DNA from: Nitrospiria bacterium | GTDB lineage: Bacteria > Nitrospirota > UBA9217 | Direction of reading: 5' to 3' | Length of the DNA stretch: 64,000 bases | NCBI GenBank assembly: GCA_919902495.1 | Contig: CAKKRC010000012.1 | Coordinates: forward strand, 71,865-135,864 | Shown here: one piece after another, positions 27,514 through 46,624 of the stretch | Layout: each line of letters begins with the position of its first letter | Position numbering within the stretch: position 1 is the stretch's first letter | The notes under the pieces: generated by a model | What the model was told of the DNA's origin: nothing | The model's database searches: none | Seen by the model: the letters and a program-made list of their open reading frames with translations, nothing else | Translations under genes and position numbers: made by a program

Positions 27514-27863
27514 GGGGGCGACTGGCTTCGACGGGGATCGAGAGATCGAGAGTTGCATGCCGAGGTGCCATGGGGCTCGTAAAACACATGGCAACATAGA
27601 ACTGCCAATAACGAACTGGCATACGCTGCTTAACTAAGTAGCGCGTCTCCCGGCTGCCGCCCGAGCGGCTGAAGAGATGTCACAATTTGGGCTGGTCTCT
27701 CCGCTAGGACCGGGGCGGAGCGATAAGAACTACCGGACTGGCCGATCCCGGAGCTTTCCCTGAGGCGCCGGAGGAAGCGAGAGCTGTAAACGAGGGGATA
27801 AGCATGTATGAGCTTTCGGTTGAAGGTTTTCGGACGCGGGTTCAATTCCCGCCGCCTCCACCA
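27514..27863 (+). ncRNA. ssrA: transfer-messenger RNA (tmRNA, ssrA)
   Basis: 5' GGGGGCGACUGGCUUCGACGGGG and 3' GGUUCAAUUCCCGCCGCCUCCACCA tRNA-like ends; internal tag reading frame GCC AAU AAC GAA CUG GCA UAC GCU GCU UAA gives tag ANNELAYAA. Confidence 0.9.
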
Positions 27864-28191
27864 TAACTATTTGATATTGCTGTGTTATTTTGATTTTTTC
27901 CGAAAGCCTCCATTGAACTCATTCGGAGATCAGAGCTAAGTCCTTAAAGGATTTAGCTCTTTTTTTGTTTTCCAGCATGCACAGGTTTGGGGTACTTTTG
28001 GGGGTAAGTTGAAATTACCGATTTTCTAATAGTTGCAGTAATTCATGCGATTGGACAAACTGTTCAATGGCGTTCTTTGAATTCAAACACAGGACAAGGC
28101 AGCGGTACTTATAGAGAGTATTTGTCGCTTGTCATCGTGTAATGAATCATGCTATTCTACATACAGACTGATTCATTGATTTTATTATAAT

Positions 28192-28656
28192 ATGAGACGA
28201 CGCATCAAAATATATCTGGATACAAGTGTATATAACCGGCCTTTTGATGACCAAAGCCAGGCTAGGATCAGGCTTGAGGCGGAGGCCTTCCTGTCGATTT
28301 TAGAAAAAACGATGGCTGGTGCGGTCAGCATCATCAGTTCATCAGTGCTGGCTTACGAGAACAGCCTGTCACCTTTTCCTGAGCGCAAAGAACGGGTATC
28401 CCATTATGTTGCTCTGGCGTCGCGGTCCGTGAAAATGAGCGATACGATCAAGAAGAGAGCAACCTTATTGGAAGAGTCCGGTTTTGATTCGCTCGATGCC
28501 ATGCATCTTGCCTGTGCTGAATCCGGCGGCGCGGAATATTTTATCACCTGTGACGATACCATCATCAGGAAAGCCAGGAAAGAGGGGAATGCGGTTTCAC
28601 TGTCGGTATGTAGTCCCCTTGAATTTCTAGTAGAGGAGGTGTTTAAGAATGCTTAG
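28192..28656 (+). CDS. PIN-domain protein (VapC-like)
   Basis: IYLDTSVY ... DAMHLACAE ... FITCDD acidic PIN residues; 154 aa. Confidence 0.65.
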   Translation: MRRRIKIYLDTSVYNRPFDDQSQARIRLEAEAFLSILEKTMAGAVSIISSSVLAYENSLSPFPERKERVSHYVALASRSVKMSDTIKKRATLLEESGFDSLDAMHLACAESGGAEYFITCDDTIIRKARKEGNAVSLSVCSPLEFLVEEVFKNA

Positions 28657-28867
28657 AACACAGCAGAAAAACCTGAGCGGTTATGCGTTGAGAGATGCAG
28701 GCTGGGAGGCATTGGTAAATAATCTCGGTCTGATCAATGCAACACGATTCATAATGCAGTCTGAAACTGGATACGGAGATTACGCGAAAATCAGGAAAGG
28801 TGCCGTAAAGGGTAAACGCGTCGCCGATCTATATAAAGAGATAGTCCTGTTCGAGAAGAAGCATTAG
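28649..28867 (+). CDS. small hypothetical protein overlapping the PIN gene stop
   Basis: 72 aa ORF, 8-nt overlap with upstream gene; no recognisable motif. Confidence 0.3.
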   Translation: MLRTQQKNLSGYALRDAGWEALVNNLGLINATRFIMQSETGYGDYAKIRKGAVKGKRVADLYKEIVLFEKKH

Positions 28868-29014
28868 TAAGGTGCGGTTTCCTGCACGACTTTATTGATC
28901 ATGTCCGACAAGGTCGAGCGCCTCGCCTTGACCACGTATCCTCTTCTCGACACTCTGCGTCGCCTCCTTCCTCCTGTTCGTGGTGCCCTTGCCATTCCTT
29001 GATTTGGAGAATCG

Positions 29015-31414
29015 ATGTCTGACAAGAAAGCACTTCTCCAGGCCATAGCAAAAGAAGAAGCCCGGCTTTCGAGGTTGGACGGTGAACGCGAACAGGCGCT
29101 TTCAAGGCTCAATTCCCTCAAACATCAACTTGCCGCGCTGGAAGCAGCATGCGTTGAGCCATCGATAACCTACGCTTCCAGAACACCGCAGGAAAAAGTG
29201 TCATTGTTCCGCTCGCTATTTCGGGGGAGGGAGGATATCTTCCCGAAGTTATGGACGAGCCGTGCCGGCAAGAAAGGTTATTCTCCCGCCTGCTCGAATG
29301 ATTGGATCTCCGGCACGTGCGGAAAGACGCACAAACCGCCGGTAAAATGCAGCGAATGCTCCAATCGTAAATTCCTTCCAGTAACCGACCAGGTTATCAC
29401 GGATCATCTCCAGGGGCGTCACGTAATCGGCGTTTACCCAATGCTGCCTGACGATACCTGCTGGTTTCTTGCCGCTGACTTCGATAAAGAAACATGGATG
29501 GACGACGTCAGCGCCTTCCGTGAAACCTGTAAGAGTATGAATATCCCCGTGGTTGTCGAGCGTTCGCGTTCGGGAAACGGAGCGCACGCATGGTTTTTCT
29601 TTACTGAACCTGTGGCGGCAGCTACAGCGCGAACTATCGGATGTTACCTGATCACGGAAACCATGAGCCGGCGTCACCAACTCAGCATGGAATCCTACGA
29701 CCGGTTGTTTCCCAGCCAGGATACGCTGACCAAGGGCGGATTTGGGAATCTGATCGCACTGCCGTTTCAGCAGGAACCACGACAAAAGGGCAATACCGTG
29801 TTTTTGGATGAGAGTTTTACGCCTTATGAAGATCAATGGGCGTATCTGGCCTCGATCGAACGACTGTCTCCGAATGTCGTCCAACAGATCGCCAATGAAG
29901 CAATACGGCAGGGCGACGTGCTCGGGTTGCCCAGAGATTCCGAGGCAGAAAGTGACGATCAGGCACCATGGAACCGTACACCATCGCGTAAAAAACCGCT
30001 AAAGAAAATCAGCGGGAAATTTCCAACTGAAACGCACGGTGTTTTTGCTCAACGTCTGTTTGTCGAGAAGAAGGATTTGCCATCATCTTTTTTGACCCGC
30101 ATCAAACGGTTAGCTTCGTTTCAAAATCCGATGTTTTATGAGAAACAAAACTTGCGTCTCTCAACGGCCCGGATACCGCGTGTGATTTCCTGCTTTGAAG
30201 AGCTTCCCGAACATATTGCTGTCCCGAGAGGCTGTTTCGACAGACTTCAAGAGCTATTCGTGGAGCATGGTGTGAAACTCGTGCTCGATGACAAACGAAT
30301 TGCGCTGCCAGGACCATCTTATTCCTTTCAGGGAACGCTGAGAGAAGCGCAGCAAGAAGCCATCGACGAGATCCTTCATTACGATCTCGGCGTTCTATCC
30401 GCGCCGCCGGGATTTGGCAAGACCGTTATCGGCGCGTATCTCATTGCAAAACGCAGCTGTAGTACACTCGTACTCGTTCATCGAAAGGAATTGTTAGACC
30501 AATGGATCGCAAGGCTTTCCCTCTTTCTCGGAATTGATCCGAAAGAAATCGGCAAGATCGGGTCAGGCAAGAACAAGCCGAACGGGAGGTTGGATGTTGC
30601 GATGATCCAGAGCCTTGTCCGCAAAGACGAAGTTAGCGATCTGGTGGCCAACTATGGTCAGGTGATAGTGGATGAATGCCATCATCTCCCCGCTGTTTCC
30701 TTTGAGCGTGTCTTGAACGAGGTGAAAGCACGATACGTTGTCGGTTTGACGGCAACGCCGTATCGACGGGACGGGCACCAGCCGATCATTCACATGCAGT
30801 GTGGACCAGTCCGCTTTTCCGTTCATCCAAAAAGCCAAGATGCAAGATCGCAGTTCAAGCACCAGTTGATCTGCAGAACAACTGAATTTACCATGGAGAA
30901 TCCTGATGCCGCGATTCAGGACATTTTCGCAAATGTCGTTAACGACAAGATGCGAAACGCTCTTATTCTTGCTGATGTAAGGCAGGCGCTCAAGGAGGGA
31001 AGATTCCCGGTGCTTCTGACTGAGCGGAAAGAGCATTTGGACCTCCTCGCGGTCGGTTTACGAGATGATGTGAAGCACCTTATCGTTTTAAGCGGCAGAC
31101 TGTCAGCTAAAGAGCGGCGTGAAACCATGGCAAGACTCGCGGCAATTCCGGAAGGCGAAGTGCGACTCATTGCGGCAACTGGTCGTTACCTTGGAGAGGG
31201 CTTCGATGATCCCCAGCTTGATACATTGATTCTGGCAATGCCGTTTTCCTGGAAAGGTACCATCGTACAGTATGCGGGCAGGCTCCACCGGGAACATCCG
31301 GGGAAGCATGAAGTTCGAGTGTACGATTATATCGATGTCAAAGTGCCAAAGTTGTTTCGGATGCACAAGAAGAGGCTTCGCGGTTTCCGAGATATCGGAT
31401 ATATAATGGAATAA
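29015..31414 (+). CDS. archaeo-eukaryotic primase (PrimPol-like) - SF2 helicase fusion protein
   Basis: N-term coiled coil, Zn-ribbon CxxC..CxxC, AEP motifs (WFLAADFDKE; SGNGAHAWFFF); C-term helicase Walker A APPGFGKT, DECHH box, GLTATP motif III. Confidence 0.8.
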   Translation: MSDKKALLQAIAKEEARLSRLDGEREQALSRLNSLKHQLAALEAACVEPSITYASRTPQEKVSLFRSLFRGREDIFPKLWTSRAGKKGYSPACSNDWISGTCGKTHKPPVKCSECSNRKFLPVTDQVITDHLQGRHVIGVYPMLPDDTCWFLAADFDKETWMDDVSAFRETCKSMNIPVVVERSRSGNGAHAWFFFTEPVAAATARTIGCYLITETMSRRHQLSMESYDRLFPSQDTLTKGGFGNLIALPFQQEPRQKGNTVFLDESFTPYEDQWAYLASIERLSPNVVQQIANEAIRQGDVLGLPRDSEAESDDQAPWNRTPSRKKPLKKISGKFPTETHGVFAQRLFVEKKDLPSSFLTRIKRLASFQNPMFYEKQNLRLSTARIPRVISCFEELPEHIAVPRGCFDRLQELFVEHGVKLVLDDKRIALPGPSYSFQGTLREAQQEAIDEILHYDLGVLSAPPGFGKTVIGAYLIAKRSCSTLVLVHRKELLDQWIARLSLFLGIDPKEIGKIGSGKNKPNGRLDVAMIQSLVRKDEVSDLVANYGQVIVDECHHLPAVSFERVLNEVKARYVVGLTATPYRRDGHQPIIHMQCGPVRFSVHPKSQDARSQFKHQLICRTTEFTMENPDAAIQDIFANVVNDKMRNALILADVRQALKEGRFPVLLTERKEHLDLLAVGLRDDVKHLIVLSGRLSAKERRETMARLAAIPEGEVRLIAATGRYLGEGFDDPQLDTLILAMPFSWKGTIVQYAGRLHREHPGKHEVRVYDYIDVKVPKLFRMHKKRLRGFRDIGYIME

Positions 31415-37945: not shown

Positions 37946-39967
37946 ATGGATATTCTCTTGAATCTCGTCAGCGTTATATCAGTCGGTGGAACGATCATAG
38001 GAATATTCACCATGATCCTGGTATATCAATCCGTTGTCATTGTCGGCGGCAGCGAGATCGCGCTTATTGAACGGCGATGGTTCGGCAAGAAGATGCCGCA
38101 GGGCCGGGTTGTTGCCATGAACGATGAGGTCGGCATTCAGGCAAGGACCCTTGGCCCGGGAATGCACTTTCTCATTCCCTTTATTTACACGGCACGAAAG
38201 AGCGAATTCACGGAAATTATGGATGGAAAGATCGGACTTATCGAATCCGTCGACGGCAGCTCGATCCCTCCCGGTAAGATATTCGCGAAAGTGATACAGG
38301 GACATAATTCATTTCAGGATGGAGTTGCGTTCTTGCAGAACGGGGGCCAGAAAGGTCCGCAGATCGATATTATCCCTCCCGGTAAATACAGGATCAATCC
38401 CTACCTCTTTAAAATATCCATTGCCGACGCGGTTGTCATCAAGAAGGGCCAGGTGGGCGTTGTTATATCGCAGGACGGCAATCCTATTGCTTCCGGACGG
38501 CTTTTAGCAACCAGTGTGCCTGACCATCATAACTTCGAAGATGGCGAAAAGTTCCTTGCGAACGGAGGGCAAAAGGGCCCGCAGATCGAAATTCTTCTGC
38601 CGGGAACCTATCGTATCAATCTGAATCTATTCCAGGTATCACCTGAGCCGGCCGCGGTCATTGATTCGGCCAAAGTCGGCCTGGTTACCGCCAAGGACGG
38701 CAATCCGCTTCCCGACAAAGAATATGTCGCCCATTCAGTGCCCGGACACTCCGATTTTCAGGATGCCAATGCATTTCTCAAAGGCGGCGGAGAACGCGGA
38801 CCACAGCTCGATGTGCTTAAGCCCGGCACCTATTATATAAACCCGTTAATGTTCAATATCGCGTTTGATGATGTTGCCGTTGTCGAGCGCGGACAGGTCG
38901 CGGTCGTCGTTTCGAACGTCGGTGATGAGCCGACGCCTGACATGAAGAAGAGGCTCGGGTCCACCCAGATGGGGGCGACCGAGGAGGAAGGGAAAGAGAA
39001 ATATGTGGTCCCCAAAGGATATCGCGGCATCCAGGAAGAAGTAGCCGGCCCCGGCAGATACTATCTTAACCGGCTGGCCTTCATGCCCTATATCATCGAC
39101 ACGACGAACATAACGATAGACTGGGACGATTCAAAAGAGACAAAGTTCAATGCTTTGAACGTCGTCTCCAAGGACGGATTCAACATCGGTGTTTCGGTCA
39201 AGGTCGTTGTTCGTGTACGGCCGGACCAGGCGCCCTACATGGTATCGAAGGTCGGTTCCATCGACAACCTGATCCTTCATGTGATTCACCCCATGATCGA
39301 TTCCAGCTTCAGGAACCAGGCTTCCACAACGTCCGCGATGAATTTCATGCAGGACAGGCAGGAAGAACAGACAAAGGCTGAATCAAGGGCACGGCTTGAG
39401 CTTGAAAAGTATCATGTCGAGTGCGTCTCCGTTCTTATCTGCCAGATCATGCTGCCCCAGGAGCTGATGGATACGCAGACGAAGAAGATCATCGCGCAGC
39501 AGCAGACCACCCAGTTCCAGGAAGAACAGAAGGCCCAGGTAACAAGGATCGAGATGGAAAAGACCAAGGCGACCGCGGACCAGCAGCCTGAACTTGTCCG
39601 GGCGGAGATCGCCGTCAAGGTTGCCGATCAGAAGAAACGGGAAACCGTTACCCTCGCCGAAGGAAATGCGGAAAGCGCGAGACTTAAGGGCGAAGGCGAT
39701 GCAAAGGCGATCGAATCGATCGGCACGGCCACAGCGGAAGCTTATGAAAAACAAAAGACCGCCATCGGGTCGCAAGCTATCATGGCGATCGAGCTCGCAA
39801 AACATATCTCCGCGGGCAAGGTCAAGATCATGCCGGATATCCTCACGATCGGGGGCAACGGCGCAGCTGAAGGTCTCGCTACGGTACTAACGCAGGCTAT
39901 TGCGCTCAGTGGCATGAAGCTGGATCCCGGCGGAAAGGCTGCCATAAATAAGACAGCTGACGCATAG
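37946..39967 (+). CDS. flotillin-family (SPFH/band 7) membrane protein with three internal about 70-aa repeats
   Basis: N-terminal TM, SPFH region, C-terminal Q/E/K/A-rich coiled coil; three repeated NGGQKGPQI...PGxYRIN modules. Confidence 0.75.
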   Translation: MDILLNLVSVISVGGTIIGIFTMILVYQSVVIVGGSEIALIERRWFGKKMPQGRVVAMNDEVGIQARTLGPGMHFLIPFIYTARKSEFTEIMDGKIGLIESVDGSSIPPGKIFAKVIQGHNSFQDGVAFLQNGGQKGPQIDIIPPGKYRINPYLFKISIADAVVIKKGQVGVVISQDGNPIASGRLLATSVPDHHNFEDGEKFLANGGQKGPQIEILLPGTYRINLNLFQVSPEPAAVIDSAKVGLVTAKDGNPLPDKEYVAHSVPGHSDFQDANAFLKGGGERGPQLDVLKPGTYYINPLMFNIAFDDVAVVERGQVAVVVSNVGDEPTPDMKKRLGSTQMGATEEEGKEKYVVPKGYRGIQEEVAGPGRYYLNRLAFMPYIIDTTNITIDWDDSKETKFNALNVVSKDGFNIGVSVKVVVRVRPDQAPYMVSKVGSIDNLILHVIHPMIDSSFRNQASTTSAMNFMQDRQEEQTKAESRARLELEKYHVECVSVLICQIMLPQELMDTQTKKIIAQQQTTQFQEEQKAQVTRIEMEKTKATADQQPELVRAEIAVKVADQKKRETVTLAEGNAESARLKGEGDAKAIESIGTATAEAYEKQKTAIGSQAIMAIELAKHISAGKVKIMPDILTIGGNGAAEGLATVLTQAIALSGMKLDPGGKAAINKTADA

Positions 39968-40222
39968 TCATAGTGTAGAATCCTGTTTGAAGCTTTTAGT
40001 CAAATCAACTTTTTGTCTCTTGCTCAAGAGAGGATCACGAACTGAGTGTTAGTTATCATGACATCGATATTGACGATAACTTATACGCGACCCAGCTTCC
40101 GCGTGCGGTCGGGCAGAATTCCTGCAGGCTGGTAAAGAACGGAATTTCATGTTTTACTAGCCGGAGACGGCTAGGCAAGTACTGGTTAGTCCTGATCAAT
40201 TGAGAGCCTTACCTGAGGGCCA

Positions 40223-40702
40223 ATGACAAACCGATATCTAAAAGCGATCAAAGACATTCTGCCTGTTCGCAGGCCAAAACTTTTCGATTTTAATATTGCT
40301 GGACTGGATGACCATGTAAAGATGGCTGATGCCTCTTTAAAAGAATCCGAAGAAGCTAAAATAATTATCCGCGATTTCACAGGCAATACTAATCAGGAAA
40401 TTGATAAGCTCGACAACGAAAGTGACATTAGAAAGAAGCAACTCAACAAAACCACCATCGCAAATCAAATAATCGCCAAACTTAACGAACTCCATGAAAT
40501 AGGCAAAAGAAATGTTATTTACAAAACTGATTACTGGATCTTGAAGCAAAAACTAATATTAACATTGGCTCGTTTGTTCGGCTCGTCATTAGATAGGGAA
40601 ATTTTTGAGAAAACCGTCCAAACATTGGAGAAGGATGGAATAATTCCGCCAGAATCAAGAACGCCATTTGCAAAGCTTTGTCCAATGGGCCGCTGGTTGT
40701 AA
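40223..40702 (+). CDS. hypothetical protein
   Basis: 159 aa ORF in island, no recognisable motif. Confidence 0.35.
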   Translation: MTNRYLKAIKDILPVRRPKLFDFNIAGLDDHVKMADASLKESEEAKIIIRDFTGNTNQEIDKLDNESDIRKKQLNKTTIANQIIAKLNELHEIGKRNVIYKTDYWILKQKLILTLARLFGSSLDREIFEKTVQTLEKDGIIPPESRTPFAKLCPMGRWL

Positions 40703-40816
40703 GTGGTATATGACGAGAATTCTAACGAGGCGGGTCGAGACCGCCGCGAAAAACACGCGGCTCACCCGCGTGTTAGTTCTGTAAAGATAAAGCATAAGTA
40801 ATGAAGGGAGATACTA

Positions 40817-41740
40817 GTGACTGCCTTAATATTTATTGATACAAATATTCTCCTTGACTTCTATCGCTATCCGCAAGGAAGCGCCGTACTTTCCATTCTT
40901 AAACATATCGACGCTAACCACGATAAAATCATTTCAGGTAATCAAGTCGAAATGGAATTCAAAAAGAATCGCCAAAAGGTGATCATGGAAGCGCTTGACT
41001 CGCTTAAAGGGCCACGATGGGAGACGTTCAAGATTCCTGTCATTCTGTCAGAGGCACAACCAGCTCAAATTATTTCAAAGAGTAGAAAAGAAATTGAGAC
41101 ACAGTCGATTAAGCTTCAGAAGCGTATTGATGCCGTATTACGAAATCCAGCTCAACATGATGATGTATATCAGACCGTGCAACGTCTATTCCGAAATAAC
41201 TCAGCACTTAATCTGACAAGAGATAATAAAATACGATTCACAATAAGGAGACTCGCGTGGAAGCGTTTTGTCCTTGGATATCCGCCACGAAAACCCAGCG
41301 ATACATCACTTGGTGATCCGATTAACTGGGAATGGTTAATTCATTGCGCAAAAGCTACAAATAAAAATGTAATAATCGTTTCGCGTGACTCTGATTATGG
41401 TTATAGATATGGCAAGGAACCAATTATCAATGATTGGCTTTTGCAGGAATTTAAAGACCGCGTTAGTCGCAAAAAGAAAGTGATACTTACAAATCGCCTT
41501 ACTCATGCGTTTGAAATAGCCAAGGTTACGATTAAGCCGCGGGAGGTTTCTGATGAAAATAAATTAATCAATGAGATGACGGATATTAATAAAGCAAGTG
41601 CGTCATTGTCGCAGATATTAATGCAAAGACTCGCATCTATCGACAAAACCGAAAATAATGACATTATCCGAAAATGGATAGAAAGCAAATGGGCAGTAGC
41701 AGACACCGAGGGTAAATCAAAGAAAACAGATGAAGAATAA
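40817..41740 (+). CDS. PIN-like domain protein
   Basis: N-terminal LIFIDTNILLDFY and later VIIVSRDSDYGY acidic clusters typical of PIN-like nucleases; 307 aa. Confidence 0.5.
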   Translation: MTALIFIDTNILLDFYRYPQGSAVLSILKHIDANHDKIISGNQVEMEFKKNRQKVIMEALDSLKGPRWETFKIPVILSEAQPAQIISKSRKEIETQSIKLQKRIDAVLRNPAQHDDVYQTVQRLFRNNSALNLTRDNKIRFTIRRLAWKRFVLGYPPRKPSDTSLGDPINWEWLIHCAKATNKNVIIVSRDSDYGYRYGKEPIINDWLLQEFKDRVSRKKKVILTNRLTHAFEIAKVTIKPREVSDENKLINEMTDINKASASLSQILMQRLASIDKTENNDIIRKWIESKWAVADTEGKSKKTDEE

Positions 41741-41821
41741 ATGAAGTTTTCTAACCTGTCAGACGCGCCAGCCTCGCTGTGCTCGGTGGCTCAGCCCCGG
41801 GGTTAGTTCGGAATAATTGTT

Positions 41822-42574
41822 ATGACATCACAATCAACTGAGGAATTGAAGCGCCACCTTACGGAGCACATCGAGTTCTTGAAGACGTCAGCAAAACTTT
41901 ACGACGATGGAGTGGTAGCAGAAGCTAAACGACTTGCTGTCTCCATTCGAGTCCTTGTTCACGATACAAATAATTCGAAGTCGCTCCTTGGTCAACTTGG
42001 AATGAAGGCTCAGCAATTTGTCGATACTACGTCTGAGCGCACGCGCAATGTTATTACGAGCTATTCAGGTTTAGTAGGGACTTTACTGCATCCCGGCCCG
42101 CCCGAATATGTGCCTAATCTTAATCGCGTACCATTTAAATTGGTACCATTTGAACAATGGTGGGAAGCACCAATTATCATTGATTTCAAGCAGCGTGCGA
42201 TCACCCGTAAGCGACTGATCCTAGCGGTATCGAACCAGGATGGGGGCGCACACGTAGACCCAGAATTAGATGATATCTACGCCGACTTATCGCGAGACAA
42301 CTCAATGAGTCGCCTGTACTCCTCTGGTGCTTCGTTGCAGCCACTTGTTGGTGTGGAGCATGCATCCGTTCGACAGGTTGCACATGAGCTGCTATGCACA
42401 CTCGATCAATCTTCCGCGCAGACCTCTAGGCAAAATAAAAAAGGATTGATCGTTGGCGGCTTCGAACTGCACTTTAGCGACGACGCGCCATCTCCGCCTG
42501 TCGGTAAGGTAGGTCGTAATGAGTCTTGCCCATGTGGTAGTGGCATGAAGTATAAGAAGTGCCACGGGAAGTAG
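41822..42574 (+). CDS. SEC-C metal-binding motif protein
   Basis: C-terminal GRNESCPCGSGMKYKKCHGK (SecA C-terminal Zn-binding motif); 250 aa. Confidence 0.6.
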   Translation: MTSQSTEELKRHLTEHIEFLKTSAKLYDDGVVAEAKRLAVSIRVLVHDTNNSKSLLGQLGMKAQQFVDTTSERTRNVITSYSGLVGTLLHPGPPEYVPNLNRVPFKLVPFEQWWEAPIIIDFKQRAITRKRLILAVSNQDGGAHVDPELDDIYADLSRDNSMSRLYSSGASLQPLVGVEHASVRQVAHELLCTLDQSSAQTSRQNKKGLIVGGFELHFSDDAPSPPVGKVGRNESCPCGSGMKYKKCHGK

Positions 42575-42676
42575 CAAGCCAAAGTTAAAATCGAGGACCA
42601 ACCTGCGCCTCGTCAGCGACGCGGCAAAGGCGGCGCGTGACGCGCTGGTTAGCTACTGTTTATTTTAGGAGCCCCT

Positions 42677-43639
42677 ATGTACTTTAATTCTGCAGACGAA
42701 CTAATCGATGCTTTCAATTTGAGAGACAACCCCGCTTATGAGCGCATAACTCCCTTGAGAGATTGCAAGGCAGGTTTCAGCGTGCAAAGAAGATATCCTG
42801 AAAGCATTCGATATCGCCCTCCAAAGTTGAAAAATGGGATCGATGATACAGTCACATTAACCCATGTGATTTATGAACACCCTGCAGAGGATAAGGCACA
42901 CATCGCTAGCCAATCAAGGATACCGCTTGTTGTCAGAATTGTTCGATTCAGCAGGTATACATCAACACACTTCGATTACAATTTTTCAGATGATAATTGC
43001 CCGACAAAGGAATCCGTCGAAAGAAGCAAATTGACGCCGCCACCAATTGAATTGACATATGAGAAGGCATTTTACTTTGATCACGATGACAACCATTTCC
43101 ACGATGAATCAGGGCGAACGCTTACTGGCAGAGAGATTCTCGAAAAAGCCTACAAGGATCACTGCGATACCGTTCACATTCTGAAAGGCCTTAAGATTAG
43201 GTTTAAGTTAAGAAGCCAGTCTTTTGGAATTGCCGTCCTAGATATCGTCGTACGCCAATTAACAAATATATTAAGCTCAATATTTGGAAGAACTCTGGAC
43301 GACTCTGACTCAATCTCGGTCTATCTTTCTGGATATAAAAGAGAGGACCTTAAGAAGTTGAGCACTGAGAGCCTCACCATATTTGAATACAGCACGTCCA
43401 GAAGAGTGATAATTCTGTTTTGCTTCTTGGCTGTATCAGGATTCACATGGTATTACTTTGCCGCCATCAATAATAAATATCTAAAGGCAATATTTGAGAA
43501 TAGTTTTTTAACCCTTACGTTCTCCATAGTGATTATCTGGTTTTTGGATGTCGTTGTGCCGGTTCTTATTTTCCGCTTGATTAATATGTTTATTAAGCTA
43601 AGAACAAAATTGACTCTCAAGTCCTTCAAGGTTTTTTAG
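42677..43639 (+). CDS. hypothetical membrane protein (soluble N-domain, C-terminal TM helices)
   Basis: 320 aa; hydrophobic helices in last about 90 residues. Confidence 0.4.
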   Translation: MYFNSADELIDAFNLRDNPAYERITPLRDCKAGFSVQRRYPESIRYRPPKLKNGIDDTVTLTHVIYEHPAEDKAHIASQSRIPLVVRIVRFSRYTSTHFDYNFSDDNCPTKESVERSKLTPPPIELTYEKAFYFDHDDNHFHDESGRTLTGREILEKAYKDHCDTVHILKGLKIRFKLRSQSFGIAVLDIVVRQLTNILSSIFGRTLDDSDSISVYLSGYKREDLKKLSTESLTIFEYSTSRRVIILFCFLAVSGFTWYYFAAINNKYLKAIFENSFLTLTFSIVIIWFLDVVVPVLIFRLINMFIKLRTKLTLKSFKVF

Positions 43640-43737
43640 CGCGCAAGATAGCGAACGATAATTTAACGCTAACATGACGTTCGAGAGGGACGGACAAATC
43701 ACCGCCCTTCAACTCGTCGTTGTAAGGAGGAACAACT

Positions 43738-44607
43738 ATGGATTTTACCAAATTCGAAACTCTTTCGATTAAACAGCATCCGGAATTAGACGAAAAATGG
43801 GTGCAGGCACGCATTTCTGAAGATCCGGCACTACTCGGACTTGGTGATGTCATTCTGAAGGATAAGGAACGCATACAACCAAGAGCTGGCCGACTGGATT
43901 TGCTCCTGCAAGAAGCGGAATCAAACAGAAGGTACGAAGTCGAAATTCAACTCGGTTCCGCAGACGAAAGCCACATTATTCGCACAATTGAATACTGGGA
44001 TATCGAACGGCGTCGCTTTCCACAGTATGAGCATACAGCAGTAATAGTCGCTGAGGACATCACAAGTCGTTTTCTTAATGTAATTAGCCTTTTTAATGGC
44101 ATGATCCCGCTTATAGCAATTCAAATGAAAGCCCTTAAAGCTGGAAACAGCGTCGGATTAGTATTCACAACAGTGGTAGACCAGATGGCGCTCGGTCTCG
44201 TCGATGAAGATGAAGAAGTTCAAGAAACAACAGACCGAACTTATTGGGAGCAGCGAGGCTCAAAAAAAACAGTCGCTGTCGCGGATGAATTGCTCGAACT
44301 TGTTCGCACTCACGACAAGGCTCTCGAACTGAAATATAACAAATTCTATATTGGATTAGCCAAAGATGGTCATCCTAGCAACTTTGTAACATTTAGACCC
44401 AAAAAAGGTTTCTTACGCTTTGAGCCTAGACTCAAGAGCACTACGGAAACACAAGAGTTCCTTGAATCAGCCGGACTAGATGTCATGGATTATGATAGTA
44501 GGTGGGGTCGCTATCGCATTCGTCTGCAGCCTGGTGATGTTGAAAAATACCGTAAGACGCTAAGCGACGTAATTGATCGGACATTCGCCGAAAGCAATAA
44601 AGAATGA
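43738..44607 (+). CDS. hypothetical protein, possible PD-(D/E)xK nuclease-like fold
   Basis: GRLDLLLQEAESNRRYEVEIQLG resembles D...E.E.K/Q restriction-endonuclease-like core. Confidence 0.35.
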   Translation: MDFTKFETLSIKQHPELDEKWVQARISEDPALLGLGDVILKDKERIQPRAGRLDLLLQEAESNRRYEVEIQLGSADESHIIRTIEYWDIERRRFPQYEHTAVIVAEDITSRFLNVISLFNGMIPLIAIQMKALKAGNSVGLVFTTVVDQMALGLVDEDEEVQETTDRTYWEQRGSKKTVAVADELLELVRTHDKALELKYNKFYIGLAKDGHPSNFVTFRPKKGFLRFEPRLKSTTETQEFLESAGLDVMDYDSRWGRYRIRLQPGDVEKYRKTLSDVIDRTFAESNKE

Positions 44608-44807
44608 CAAGACGAAACTTATGATCCAACCAGCGGGTCGAGCCCGACGCGCAGGGAACGCGCGTCACGCCCGCGCGTTCCAGTGTAAGTAACAACCAGA
44701 AGACTGCAAGGCTGTTGACAATGCGTCTTGTACACACTTGTAAGTGAAGCTGATGAATTCTAATCGACCAATACAATACTGATAAACTGTTTGAAATTTG
44801 CACTGTC

Positions 44808-45236
44808 ATATCCCTTGTCAACGCCCGCCGGATATAGTACGCTCTTCCTGCCGATACGATAACCTTCGCATTGCATCAGAATTTGACAACATGACCTCCT
44901 ATCCCATCGACACCATCCTTCCCGAGCTGAAGAAGGCCGTGCAAAGCGGCCCCTCGGTCATCGTCCATGCGCCGCCCGGCGCGGGGAAGACCACCCGCGT
45001 CCCGCTGGCGCTGCTCGATGTGATCCCGCAGGAGCAGGGACGCATCATCATGCTTGAGCCGCGGAGGATCGCGGCGGTCTCGGCTGCTCGCTGGATGGCG
45101 AGGACGCTGGGCGAGGAGGCGGGCGGGACCGTAGGATACGCCATCCGGTTCGACAGCAGGAGCTCCGCGAGGACGCGCATCGAGGTCGTCACCGAGGGCA
45201 TCCTGACCCGCCGCATCCAGGCAGATCCCGGGCTGC
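44808..45236 (+). repeat. direct repeat DR1: upstream region plus first 115 codons of hrpB
   Basis: about 93% identical to 46196-46624. Confidence 0.8.
44891..45236 (+). pseudogene. 5' fragment of ATP-dependent helicase hrpB
   Basis: MTSYPIDTILPELKKAVQSGPSVIVHAPPGAGKTT... matches intact HrpB N-terminus then diverges after RRIQADPGL. Confidence 0.8.
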
Positions 45237-45342
45237 TTCTGCAGTTGATGCGCAGAAAGATTGCGATATGCGCGGGAATAGGATATTATAACGTCAGGTA
45301 TTCGATGGCGGAAAAATGGATGCCTGCTCTGGTGAGAAAAAA

Positions 45343-45855
45343 ATGAAAATCGTCATTATCGCTGGGCCGAATGGGGCGGGAAAAACCACGTTTGCCAAAG
45401 AATTTCTCCCCAACGAAGCCAACTGCCCGGAGTTTATCAATGCTGATCTCATAGCAGCAGGATTGTCACCTTTCAAACCAGAGGCGGTGACAGCACGAGC
45501 CGGACGGCTTATGCTGGTGGAAATGGACGAGCGAGTGCGTCAACGACGCAGTTTCGCCTTTGAGACAACGCTGAGTGGCCATGCATATGTACGGAGAATA
45601 TCGAGATGGCTTTTGCTCGGTTATCATGTGAAGCTGATTTTTTTGAGCCTTCCGAGCGTCGACATGGCGGTTGCCCGCGTTGCTGCACGAGTAGCGCAGG
45701 GTGGCCACAATGTGCCTGAAGAAATCATCCGGCGAAGATTTAAAAGTGGTTTGCGCAACTTCGAGCTGGTTTATAAGAGCCTTGTGGATGCATGGGCATT
45801 GTATGATAACTCAGGCAGCATCCCAAAGCTGCTGGATTGGGGAGAAAAATCATGA
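45343..45855 (+). CDS. zeta-toxin-like / AAA-family P-loop kinase
   Basis: Walker A IAGPNGAGKTT, INAD motif, about 170 aa. Confidence 0.55.
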   Translation: MKIVIIAGPNGAGKTTFAKEFLPNEANCPEFINADLIAAGLSPFKPEAVTARAGRLMLVEMDERVRQRRSFAFETTLSGHAYVRRISRWLLLGYHVKLIFLSLPSVDMAVARVAARVAQGGHNVPEEIIRRRFKSGLRNFELVYKSLVDAWALYDNSGSIPKLLDWGEKS

Positions 45856-46028
45856 AGACTAAAAAAACACTGCCGAGGGATGTCGATCTTGCGGGCGCGG
45901 GCAAAGCGCTCAAGCGGGCTGCCAAGACGGCCCGAGAATTGTCTCAGAAGACCAACACACCCTTTTATGTTTACGAAGGCGGCAAAATTATCAATGCATT
46001 GAAACGCACAAAAAAATCAGCTGCTTAA
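45837..46028 (+). CDS. small basic protein overlapping the P-loop gene stop
   Basis: 63 aa, 19-nt overlap; K/R-rich. Confidence 0.3.
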   Translation: MGRKIMKTKKTLPRDVDLAGAGKALKRAAKTARELSQKTNTPFYVYEGGKIINALKRTKKSAA

Positions 46029-46195
46029 ACAAGCGCTCAATTCGCATCGTCAAAAAACGGGCTGCCATATGGCTTCGCATTCATGTGCAAGTCTAATCAA
46101 AAGGGCAGGACCCATGTCCTGATTGGGAACAGCCTGCTCTTCCCGTCACGATCCCTGCGCCACCGCCACCCCGAAGCGGCCTGCCGGGTTACCGT

Positions 46196-46624
46196 CATAT
46201 TCCTTGTCAACACCCTCCGGATATAGTACGCTCTTCCTGCCGACGCGATAACCTTCGCATTGCATCAGAATTTGACAACATGAACTCCTATCCCATCGAT
46301 ACCATCCTTCCCGAACTGAAGAAGGCCGTCCAGAACGGCCCCTCGGTCATCGTGCATGCGCCGCCCGGCGCGGGAAAGACCACCCGCGTGCCGCTTGCGC
46401 TGCTCGACGTCATCCCACGCGAGCAGGGCCGAATCATCATGCTCGAGCCGCGGAGGATCGCGGCGGTCTCGGCGGCGCGCTGGATGGCGAGGACGGTGGG
46501 AGAAGAAGTCGGCGGCACCGTCGGCTACGCGATCCGGTTCGACAGCAGAAGCTCCGCGAGGACCCGCATCGAGGTTGTCACCGAGGGCATCCTGACCCGC
46601 CGCATCCAGGTCGATCCCGGCCTC
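46196..46624 (+). repeat. direct repeat DR2 (native hrpB upstream region and 5' end)
   Basis: see DR1. Confidence 0.8.

Follow-up and report, generated by a model that had tools for sequence, protein, structure and literature searches.

A probable array of five integron-type gene cassettes without a nearby integrase in a Nitrospirota genome

Does a run of five foreign-looking genes in one direction encode a single system, or is it a row of separate mobile units? The question is raised by a 64-kb stretch of contig CAKKRC010000012.1 from a Nitrospirota metagenome-assembled genome (MAG), called the window throughout, which carries an AT-rich block of five genes. An earlier note on this DNA had proposed that a PIN-like nuclease, a SEC-C zinc-motif protein, a membrane protein, a nuclease-like protein and a small orphan act together as an uncharacterised defence system. 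In the analysis reported here we found that region 40186-44683 very probably consists of five integron-type gene cassettes in a row, each carrying one gene and one recombination site (attC), with no integron integrase nearby. The element is of a known type, the CALIN (attC sites in a cluster that has no integron integrase), and it adds an integron-type array to the Nitrospirota.

Composition and gene content of the block

Windowed composition gave a GC content of 0.37-0.50 at ~40000-44800, compared with 0.60-0.70 in most of the 64-kb window. Five open reading frames (ORFs) span 40223-44607 on the + strand, co-directional and at exactly the sizes that the earlier note had claimed:

40223-40702, + strand: ORF1, 159 aa
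40817-41740, + strand: ORF2, 307 aa, predicted PIN-like nuclease (PIN_12/PIN_8, "DUF4935")
41822-42574, + strand: ORF3, 250 aa, C-terminal SEC-C zinc motif
42677-43639, + strand: ORF4, 320 aa, C-terminal membrane anchor, no Pfam match
43738-44607, + strand: ORF5, 289 aa, predicted NucS-like PD-(D/E)xK N-domain and DUF5655/YjbR-like C-domain

The intergenic gaps in the block are 82-115 bp, without tight coupling. GC content per ORF is 0.38-0.49 (flanks ~0.60-0.68), and GC at third codon positions (GC3) is 0.36-0.48 in the five ORFs, compared with 0.70-0.89 in the radical-SAM gene, hrpB and the hrpB fragment of the flanks and 0.63 in the SPFH gene just upstream. The AT-rich island of the earlier note is thus borne out by composition and by the GC3 of all five ORFs. 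Its domain assignments were all found again (PIN_12/PIN_8, C-terminal SEC-C, C-terminal membrane anchor and a predicted NucS-like PD-(D/E)xK fold), and its view that the block was horizontally acquired and has no housekeeping role is supported. At NCBI the block proteins are MEK6742417-425 (Nitrospirota MAG).

A palindromic site after each gene

When the five gaps were inspected, each was seen to contain a GC-rich (0.51-0.75) imperfect palindrome bounded on the left by YYAAC and on the right by GTT. The proposed cassettes and attC sites are:

40186-40772, + strand: cassette 1, ORF1 and attC1; left border provisional
40720-40778, + strand: attC1, TTCTAAC ... GTTAGTT, 59 nt, GC 0.64
40773-41802, + strand: cassette 2, ORF2 and attC2
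41749-41808, + strand: attC2, TTCTAAC ... GTTAGTT, 60 nt, GC 0.66; weakest site
41803-42648, + strand: cassette 3, ORF3 and attC3
42596-42654, + strand: attC3, GACCAAC ... GTTAGCT, 59 nt, GC 0.69
42649-43719, + strand: cassette 4, ORF4 and attC4
43667-43725, + strand: attC4, CGCTAAC ... GTTGTAA, 59 nt, GC 0.51; GTT at 43719-43721
43720-44677, + strand: cassette 5, ORF5 and attC5; last cassette
44624-44683, + strand: attC5, ATCCAAC ... GTTCCAG, 60 nt, GC 0.75

The family termini of these sites are GCGGGTCGAG...CTCGACCCGC. All five sites are 59-60 nt long with an AAC-to-GTT spacing of 45-46 nt, and in all five units the ORF comes before its attC, with each ORF start lying 19-45 nt past the preceding GTT. 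The sites are 0.85-1.07 kb apart, below the 4-kb clustering distance, and all on one strand. The left border of cassette 1 was set at the GTT of GTTAGTC (40185-40191), solely from a GTTAG motif located 38 nt before the start codon.

Folding gave a similar picture. For four of the five sites the end-to-end hairpin closed by AAC/GTT is the minimum-energy fold, and for attC5 the end-to-end bottom-strand hairpin lies within 1.5 kcal/mol of the minimum. Unpaired extra bases are found mostly on the left (R''-L'') arm. The attC1 hairpin is a single long imperfect stem closed by CTAAC/GTTAG (DNA-fold z-score -4.15), while that of attC2 is closed by six pairs with G-T wobbles on the bottom strand, its termini and spacing being those of attC1. 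The second half of the attC5 R' deviates from the GTTRRRY consensus, as expected for the end of an array, and attC5 is homologous to attC1 (E 1.6e-4 with R1, a single-sequence attC1 model). In attC sites an R'' core (..AAC) and an inverted R' core (GTT..) bound an imperfect palindrome of ~55-140 nt, one arm of which has extrahelical bases; the window sites share this anatomy.

On the + strand of the 64 kb there are six occurrences of C[CT]AAC-N45/46-GTT, five of them at these attC sites; about 0.30 occurrences are expected in the island, and the maximum across 300 shuffles was 2. A more generic scan for AAC...GTT-closed hairpins was dropped as not discriminating (~27 matches per strand in the GC-rich window).

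Covariance models built from attC sites of other genomes

Since the pattern was defined post hoc, an independent test of the sites was needed. For this we used R2, a covariance model built from 15 attC sites of other genomes only, located 3' of ORF5 or PIN homologues and in several cases beside integron integrases. RNAalifold on MAFFT alignments of attC sites returned wrong or empty consensus structures, as MAFFT aligns palindromes without structure, and the consensus structure of R2 was therefore set by hand from pair counts. R1 had been dropped as too sequence-specific: it found attC5 and weakly attC2, missed attC3 and attC4, and matched a hairpin in the hrpB coding sequence.

With filters off and 128 kb searched, attC5, attC4, attC1 and attC3 took ranks 1, 2, 3 and 5 among the R2 matches, all at full length and on the expected strand, with window-wide E-values of 0.12, 0.24, 0.54 and 0.59 and scores of 15.9, 14.6, 13.2 (bottom strand) and 13.0 bits, respectively; attC2 scored 7.7 bits. 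When only the island is searched, the predicted sites take the first five places among distinct loci, with E-values of 0.0095 for attC5, then 0.02, 0.044 for attC1, 0.048 for attC3 and 0.94 for attC2. The model also performs as a detector elsewhere. In two sets of matches, 43 out of 50 and 29 out of 31 lie on the cassette strand, the few on the opposite strand being mostly echoes of palindromes found on the cassette strand, and multi-site arrays were recovered in L130, L149, L058, L004 and L172, including arrays beside the integrase gene intI.

Homologues of the five genes in other genomes

We examined 80 loci for PIN (ORF2) homologues, with up to 10 kb of flank per side, and 84 loci for ORF5 homologues, with up to 5 kb per side. 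No relatives of ORF1, ORF3, ORF4, ORF5 or the SPFH protein were found near the PIN homologues, and no relatives of ORF1-ORF4 near the ORF5 homologues. ORF5 homologues that are 91-95% identical to the window protein have unrelated neighbours in three loci: TIR_2 and ThsB_TIR genes and gyrA in L088, phospholipase D-like (PLD) and WYL genes in L089, and different genes again in L090. For close ORF5 homologues as a whole (85-95% identical), the surroundings likewise have nothing in common. The five genes thus have unrelated evolutionary distributions. Because each gene has its own attC, selection and mobility act at the level of the single cassette.

Three of the five gene families (ORF2, ORF3 and ORF5) are recurrent integron cassettes. 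PIN homologues are directly bounded by attC matches in at least 11 of 80 loci, and an IntI1-like integrase sequence lies directly beside the PIN homologue in five (Thioalkalivibrio, Azonexaceae, Xanthomonas translucens, Rhodoferax and Burkholderiales loci); in a sixth locus (Cyanobium) it is ~2.7 kb off. An attC immediately follows the stop codon of the ORF5 homologue in roughly 20 of 84 loci, and in 4 loci of this set the contig also carries IntI1-like integrase sequence, which in L166 is directly beside the gene. An ORF3 homologue on the X. campestris chromosome (L172) precedes an attC of 50.7 bits (E 3e-10) that belongs to an array with six or more attC sites, and a second ORF3 homologue (L173) precedes an attC with E 0.006.

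The borders of cassette 5 could be compared at the nucleotide level. DNA homology between the window and L088, L090 and L091 starts at 43719-43725, and for L088 exactly at the G of the attC4 GTT core (43719), upstream of which L088 has a different palindrome, TCTAAC...GTTGTAC. The attC sites 3' of the ORF5 homologues in L088 and L094 are homologous to attC5, and the stem is kept by compensatory changes: the L boxes are GCGGG/CCCGC in attC5, CGCCG/CGGCG in L088 and GCCGG/CCGGC in L094. These changes were read directly; the four-sequence MAFFT alignment of attC5 mis-registers the right arm, and a pair count on it was abandoned. At the sequence level, the GTT boundary together with a covarying downstream attC is the classical signature of a discrete gene cassette, as seen here for cassette 5.

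Absence of an integrase and borders of the proposed array

In a tblastn search with IntI1 and XerC queries, no integron integrase with E<1 was found in the 64-kb window. A weak IntI1 match at 37818-37931 (E 1.6) was judged to be due to chance after all frames there had been looked at. The window also yielded no attI or cassette promoter (Pc), and the R2 search gave no attC- or attI-like match at the left border (39968-40222). The locus is therefore not a complete integron, in which intI, attI and Pc adjoin the array. A CALIN is defined as at least two attC sites on one strand less than 4 kb apart without an integrase (PMC4889954); with five such sites and no integrase in 64 kb, we assigned the array to this class.

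A 29-bp near-palindrome, GTTATCATGACATCGATATTGACGATAAC, is present at 40052-40080 between the SPFH gene and cassette 1, where it overlaps GTTAGTT (40048-40054). It might serve protein binding or be the relic of a recombination site.

Weighing the alternatives

Several points weigh against the assignment to a cassette array, in addition to the fact that the pattern above was written after the sites were seen. The missing integrase, attI and Pc are among them, and the IntI1 and XerC query sequences are a lead rather than a reference (in other loci they matched integrases at 52-67% identity). R2 is home-made and is not the attC model of IntegronFinder. The window sites score 8-16 bits, compared with 25-60 for proteobacterial-type sites, single-site window-wide E-values are only 0.1-0.6, and R3, which is R2 refined on 26 matches, brought no gain in window scores (attC4 ranked first, E 0.18). 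The fold of attC2 is no more stable than shuffled sequence (z -0.18); this site is a marginal fifth-best distinct locus of the island with R2 and is absent from the R2 matches of the window-wide search. On the comparative side, the evidence covers cassettes 2, 3 and 5, and that for a boundary covers cassette 5 only. For the PIN homologues nearest to ORF2 (L083 and L084, 68-71% identical), neither an obvious attC nor a shared cassette boundary was seen, which means that the PIN family also lives outside integrons. Given the low scores and the marginal attC2, the case rests on the joint pattern and on no single E-value.

The same data bear on three other explanations. The proposal that the five genes form one operon-encoded multi-component anti-phage system, with nuclease, zinc module and membrane effector acting jointly, draws on their common direction, foreign composition and nuclease and membrane domains, on the match of ORF5 to a PADLOC candidate (see below), and on the fact that no terminator-like sites were seen between the genes. 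We consider it very improbable, as the other genes do not co-occur at the 80 PIN and 84 ORF5 loci (lack of co-conservation is what the earlier note itself had named as speaking against its proposal), near-identical ORF5 genes have unrelated neighbours, there is no multi-gene PADLOC match, and every gap of 82-115 bp holds a recombination-site-like palindrome, unlike the tight or overlapping junctions of operons. An ordinary genomic or defence island brought in by a non-integron route, such as homologous recombination at hrpB or an unrecognised integrative element, would require the palindromes to be terminators or repetitive extragenic palindromic (REP)-like repeats. No T-tract follows them, they share length, strand and core termini, and a model from bona fide attC sites selects exactly these sites; in addition, another array contains the ORF5 unit with an identical GTT boundary and an attC that covaries, and three of the five gene families are found as integron cassettes. 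This origin is therefore unlikely, even when the 433-bp duplication of the hrpB 5' end at the right edge, which points to non-integron recombination here, is set beside the modest model scores of the palindromes and the many AAC...GTT hairpins that the generic scan finds in this GC-rich genome. The block, even if assembled from cassettes elsewhere, could have come whole by homologous recombination.

A prophage or satellite remnant with accessory "moron" genes was also considered and rejected as extremely improbable: phage structural, replication, lysis or integrase genes lie neither in the block nor next to it, its flanking genes are chromosomal, and the block is absent from all 164 loci examined. 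Two of the proteins, ORF2 and ORF3, do match PHROG families, both of which are of unknown function.

For the preferred reading as five cassettes, the following origin can be proposed. An IntI tyrosine recombinase would have inserted the cassettes singly, or moved them as a block, either here or in a donor. By established integron biology, the enzyme would act on attC in its folded bottom-strand form and recombine it at the G|TT in the R' core, and the partner may have been attI, another attC or a secondary genomic site; CALINs can also arise via insertion at secondary genomic sites (bioRxiv 10.1101/2022.09.11.507474). The integrase would later have been lost, or may be located elsewhere in the genome. 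Without a Pc, expression would depend on read-through from the promoter of the SPFH gene or on internal promoters. Any IntI entering the cell could still mobilise the cassettes in trans. The cargo would be accessory genes that each stand alone (for a predicted PIN-like nuclease, a SEC-C protein, a membrane protein, a putative NucS-like nuclease and an orphan) rather than a joint system.

Cargo proteins and possible defence roles

ORF1 has no family match in Pfam, NCBIfam, PHROGs or PADLOC. ORF2 matches PIN_12 (E 7e-24), with 85.5 bits for PF16289 (cut-off 32) and 59.6 bits for PF18476 (cut-off 26.1), and its acidic residues D8, E45, E47, D162, D167, D191 and D193 are invariant or nearly so among 32 homologues. 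By its sequence it is a predicted PIN-like nuclease of the DUF4935/PIN_12 group with the acidic residues intact. DUF4935 genes are usually mono-cistronic (Matelska et al., PMC5499597). ORF2 also matches phrog_9788 (E 2e-16), and the N-terminal 200 aa of ORF3 match phrog_7805 (E 5e-49). The SEC-C motif of ORF3 was found with E 5e-9; a structural model of this protein (predicted local distance difference test, pLDDT, 86) gave no convincing fold match in the PDB. ORF4 has hydrophobic segments at 243-264 and 271-310 and belongs to a real family (375 representative clusters, full length ~320 aa, no Pfam entry).

The N-domain of ORF5 is NucS-like in the predicted structure, where the model is moderately confident. 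Residues D54, E67, E69 and Q71 are invariant, with the glutamine at the position expected for the catalytic lysine. Sequence searches found no solved-structure relatives of ORF2 or ORF5. All 30 of the ORF5 family members tested match the PADLOC candidate PDC-S18 as distant relatives (best E 2.5e-8).

The ORF5 family has more than 8000 matches; the best 120 are 75-95% identical and nearly all exactly 289 aa long. It is unusually conserved for an accessory gene and is found as an integron cassette and as a solitary gene, in sources named partly as Nitrospirota and Deltaproteobacteria/Desulfobacterota. On the metagenome contig L088 (62-2604), two small co-directional TIR-domain genes (TIR_2 and ThsB_TIR) precede the ORF5 cassette, which is again the last unit before housekeeping genes (gyrA) and has an attC whose end, GCG|TTC, matches that in the window.

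PADLOC reported no multi-gene system, in line with the earlier note, which had recognised no named system; the only hits were matches of ORF3 to the SEC-C motif alone and the weak PDC-S18 match of ORF5. None of the five proteins matches a validated anti-phage system. The earlier note had called the combination of genes typical of defence islands, and this stands in part: the nuclease-type and membrane proteins are of the kind found in defence islands, and ORF5 has its match to PDC-S18, but joint action as one system does not follow. Toxin-antitoxin genes and small defence systems made up of a single gene abound in integron cassettes (PMC10661359; bioRxiv 10.1101/2024.07.02.601686). It is therefore plausible that some of the cargo genes have single-gene anti-phage or toxin-like functions. 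That at least one cassette is a new stand-alone anti-phage or anti-plasmid gene is a tentative suggestion, for which ORF5, with its distant match to PDC-S18, its spread as a lone cassette or solitary gene and its homologues beside TIR/ThsB, PLD and WYL genes, would be the strongest candidate.

Neighbouring features of the window

The array is located on the chromosome, with an SPFH gene on its left and a duplication of the hrpB 5' end on its right:

37946-39967, + strand: SPFH/Band-7 membrane protein, 673 aa, Band_7 E 8e-23; upstream neighbour of the array
44802-45234, + strand: truncated hrpB', comprising the hrpB promoter region and the first 115 codons
46280-48808: intact hrpB, from ORF listing and profile match

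The SPFH gene has an intermediate GC content of 0.53, and its protein an N-terminal hydrophobic segment. A promoter-like site, TTGACA-17-TATATT, is found before it at 37832-37860 (11 of 12 positions match), and no terminator-like site was seen between this gene and ORF1. The cassettes might be expressed by read-through from this site.

On the right, a 433-bp direct repeat (~92% identical; 44802-45234 and 46191-46623) takes in hrpB codons 1-115 and 89 bp upstream of the gene. Between the copies lie 956 bp, which encode a zeta-toxin/AAA_33-like ATPase (45316-45855) overlapping a 63-aa ORF (45837-46028). Repeat and insert have the look of an insertion into the 5' end of hrpB, of Campbell type or gene-restoring, and no recombinase is present.

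The hrpB codons for LEPRRIAAVS (GAGCCGCGGAGGATCGCGGCGGTCTCG), at 45042-45096 and 46431-46485 (+), encode part of a helicase motif, can form a hairpin and resemble the central hairpin of attC1 (GAGCCGCGTGTTTTTCGCGGCGGTCTCG, 40720-40779, bottom strand), with an exact 8-mer and an exact 14-mer in common (R1 E about 1e-4). Chance is an unlikely source of this identity; that it reflects the origin of the attC sites or the siting of the array is a second speculative reading, weaker than that of ORF5 as a defence gene.

Farther upstream, a lower-GC stretch comes after a transfer-messenger RNA (tmRNA) gene at 27514-27863 (tag ANNELAYAA) and contains a PIN-domain gene (28192-28656) and a 799-aa TOTE-type archaeo-eukaryotic primase (AEP)-helicase fusion (29015-31414; PF22548, E 3e-100). 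Region 27514-31414 is probably an island of its own that integrated at ssrA. Inverted repeats of 23-54 nt, imperfect (73-96% complementary) and rich in CCCCTCTCC, occur at 35285-35408 and 37639-37765, with direct copies nearby; they flank a radical-SAM/B12-binding gene (35987-37501).

Comparison with known systems

CALINs contain 5-6 attC sites on average, and for 95% of them no intI pseudogene can be recognised within 10 kb (PMC4889954; Néron et al. 2022, PMC9024848). The array in the window resembles them in its five attC-type sites on one strand, each after a single ORF, in the lack of a nearby integrase and in its typical size. It differs in its source, a Nitrospirota MAG, and in that its sites are weak on models dominated by proteobacterial-type attC and are without the GTTC/GAAC-type L boxes seen in many proteobacterial-type sites. 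A survey of RefSeq recorded only two CALINs in Nitrospirota, both from Ca. Nitrospira inopinata (PMC9024848), so this array is an addition to a phylum in which almost none had been seen, and the weak recognition by proteobacterial-type models suggests that such arrays may be under-counted in environmental MAGs.

Homologues of two window cassettes are cassettes in the sedentary chromosomal integrons of Xanthomonas; in X. translucens DSM 18974 (L020), the PIN homologue is flanked by attC sites beside a degraded intI. In Xanthomonas arrays the attC repeats are near-identical and intI has a fixed locus, whereas in the window attC1 and attC5 are related, attC2-attC4 are far more divergent and there is no intI.

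The cargo is small, single-gene and of nuclease or membrane-anchored type, like the single-gene anti-phage integron cassettes described recently (Darracq et al. 2024, bioRxiv 10.1101/2024.07.02.601686; Kieffer et al., 10.1101/2024.07.02.601719); validated Vibrio cassette systems include nuclease-plus-transmembrane and Mrr/RecB-like fusions (bioRxiv 10.1101/2024.07.02.601686). Unlike those, the window proteins match no validated system, and any defence role for them is a prediction. The very widespread and highly conserved ORF5 family is a reasonable single-gene defence candidate, and the interest of the locus would rise if single cassettes, above all that of ORF5, prove to be defence genes.

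With defence islands the block shares AT-rich foreign DNA, nucleases and an adjoining toxin-like ATPase, and a second conflict locus (PIN and TOTE AEP-helicase) lies ~9-12 kb upstream, after the tmRNA gene. It differs from a defence operon in that its genes are not conserved as a set and each has its own recombination site. The locus is accordingly recast from a possible five-gene defence system to five separate cassettes.

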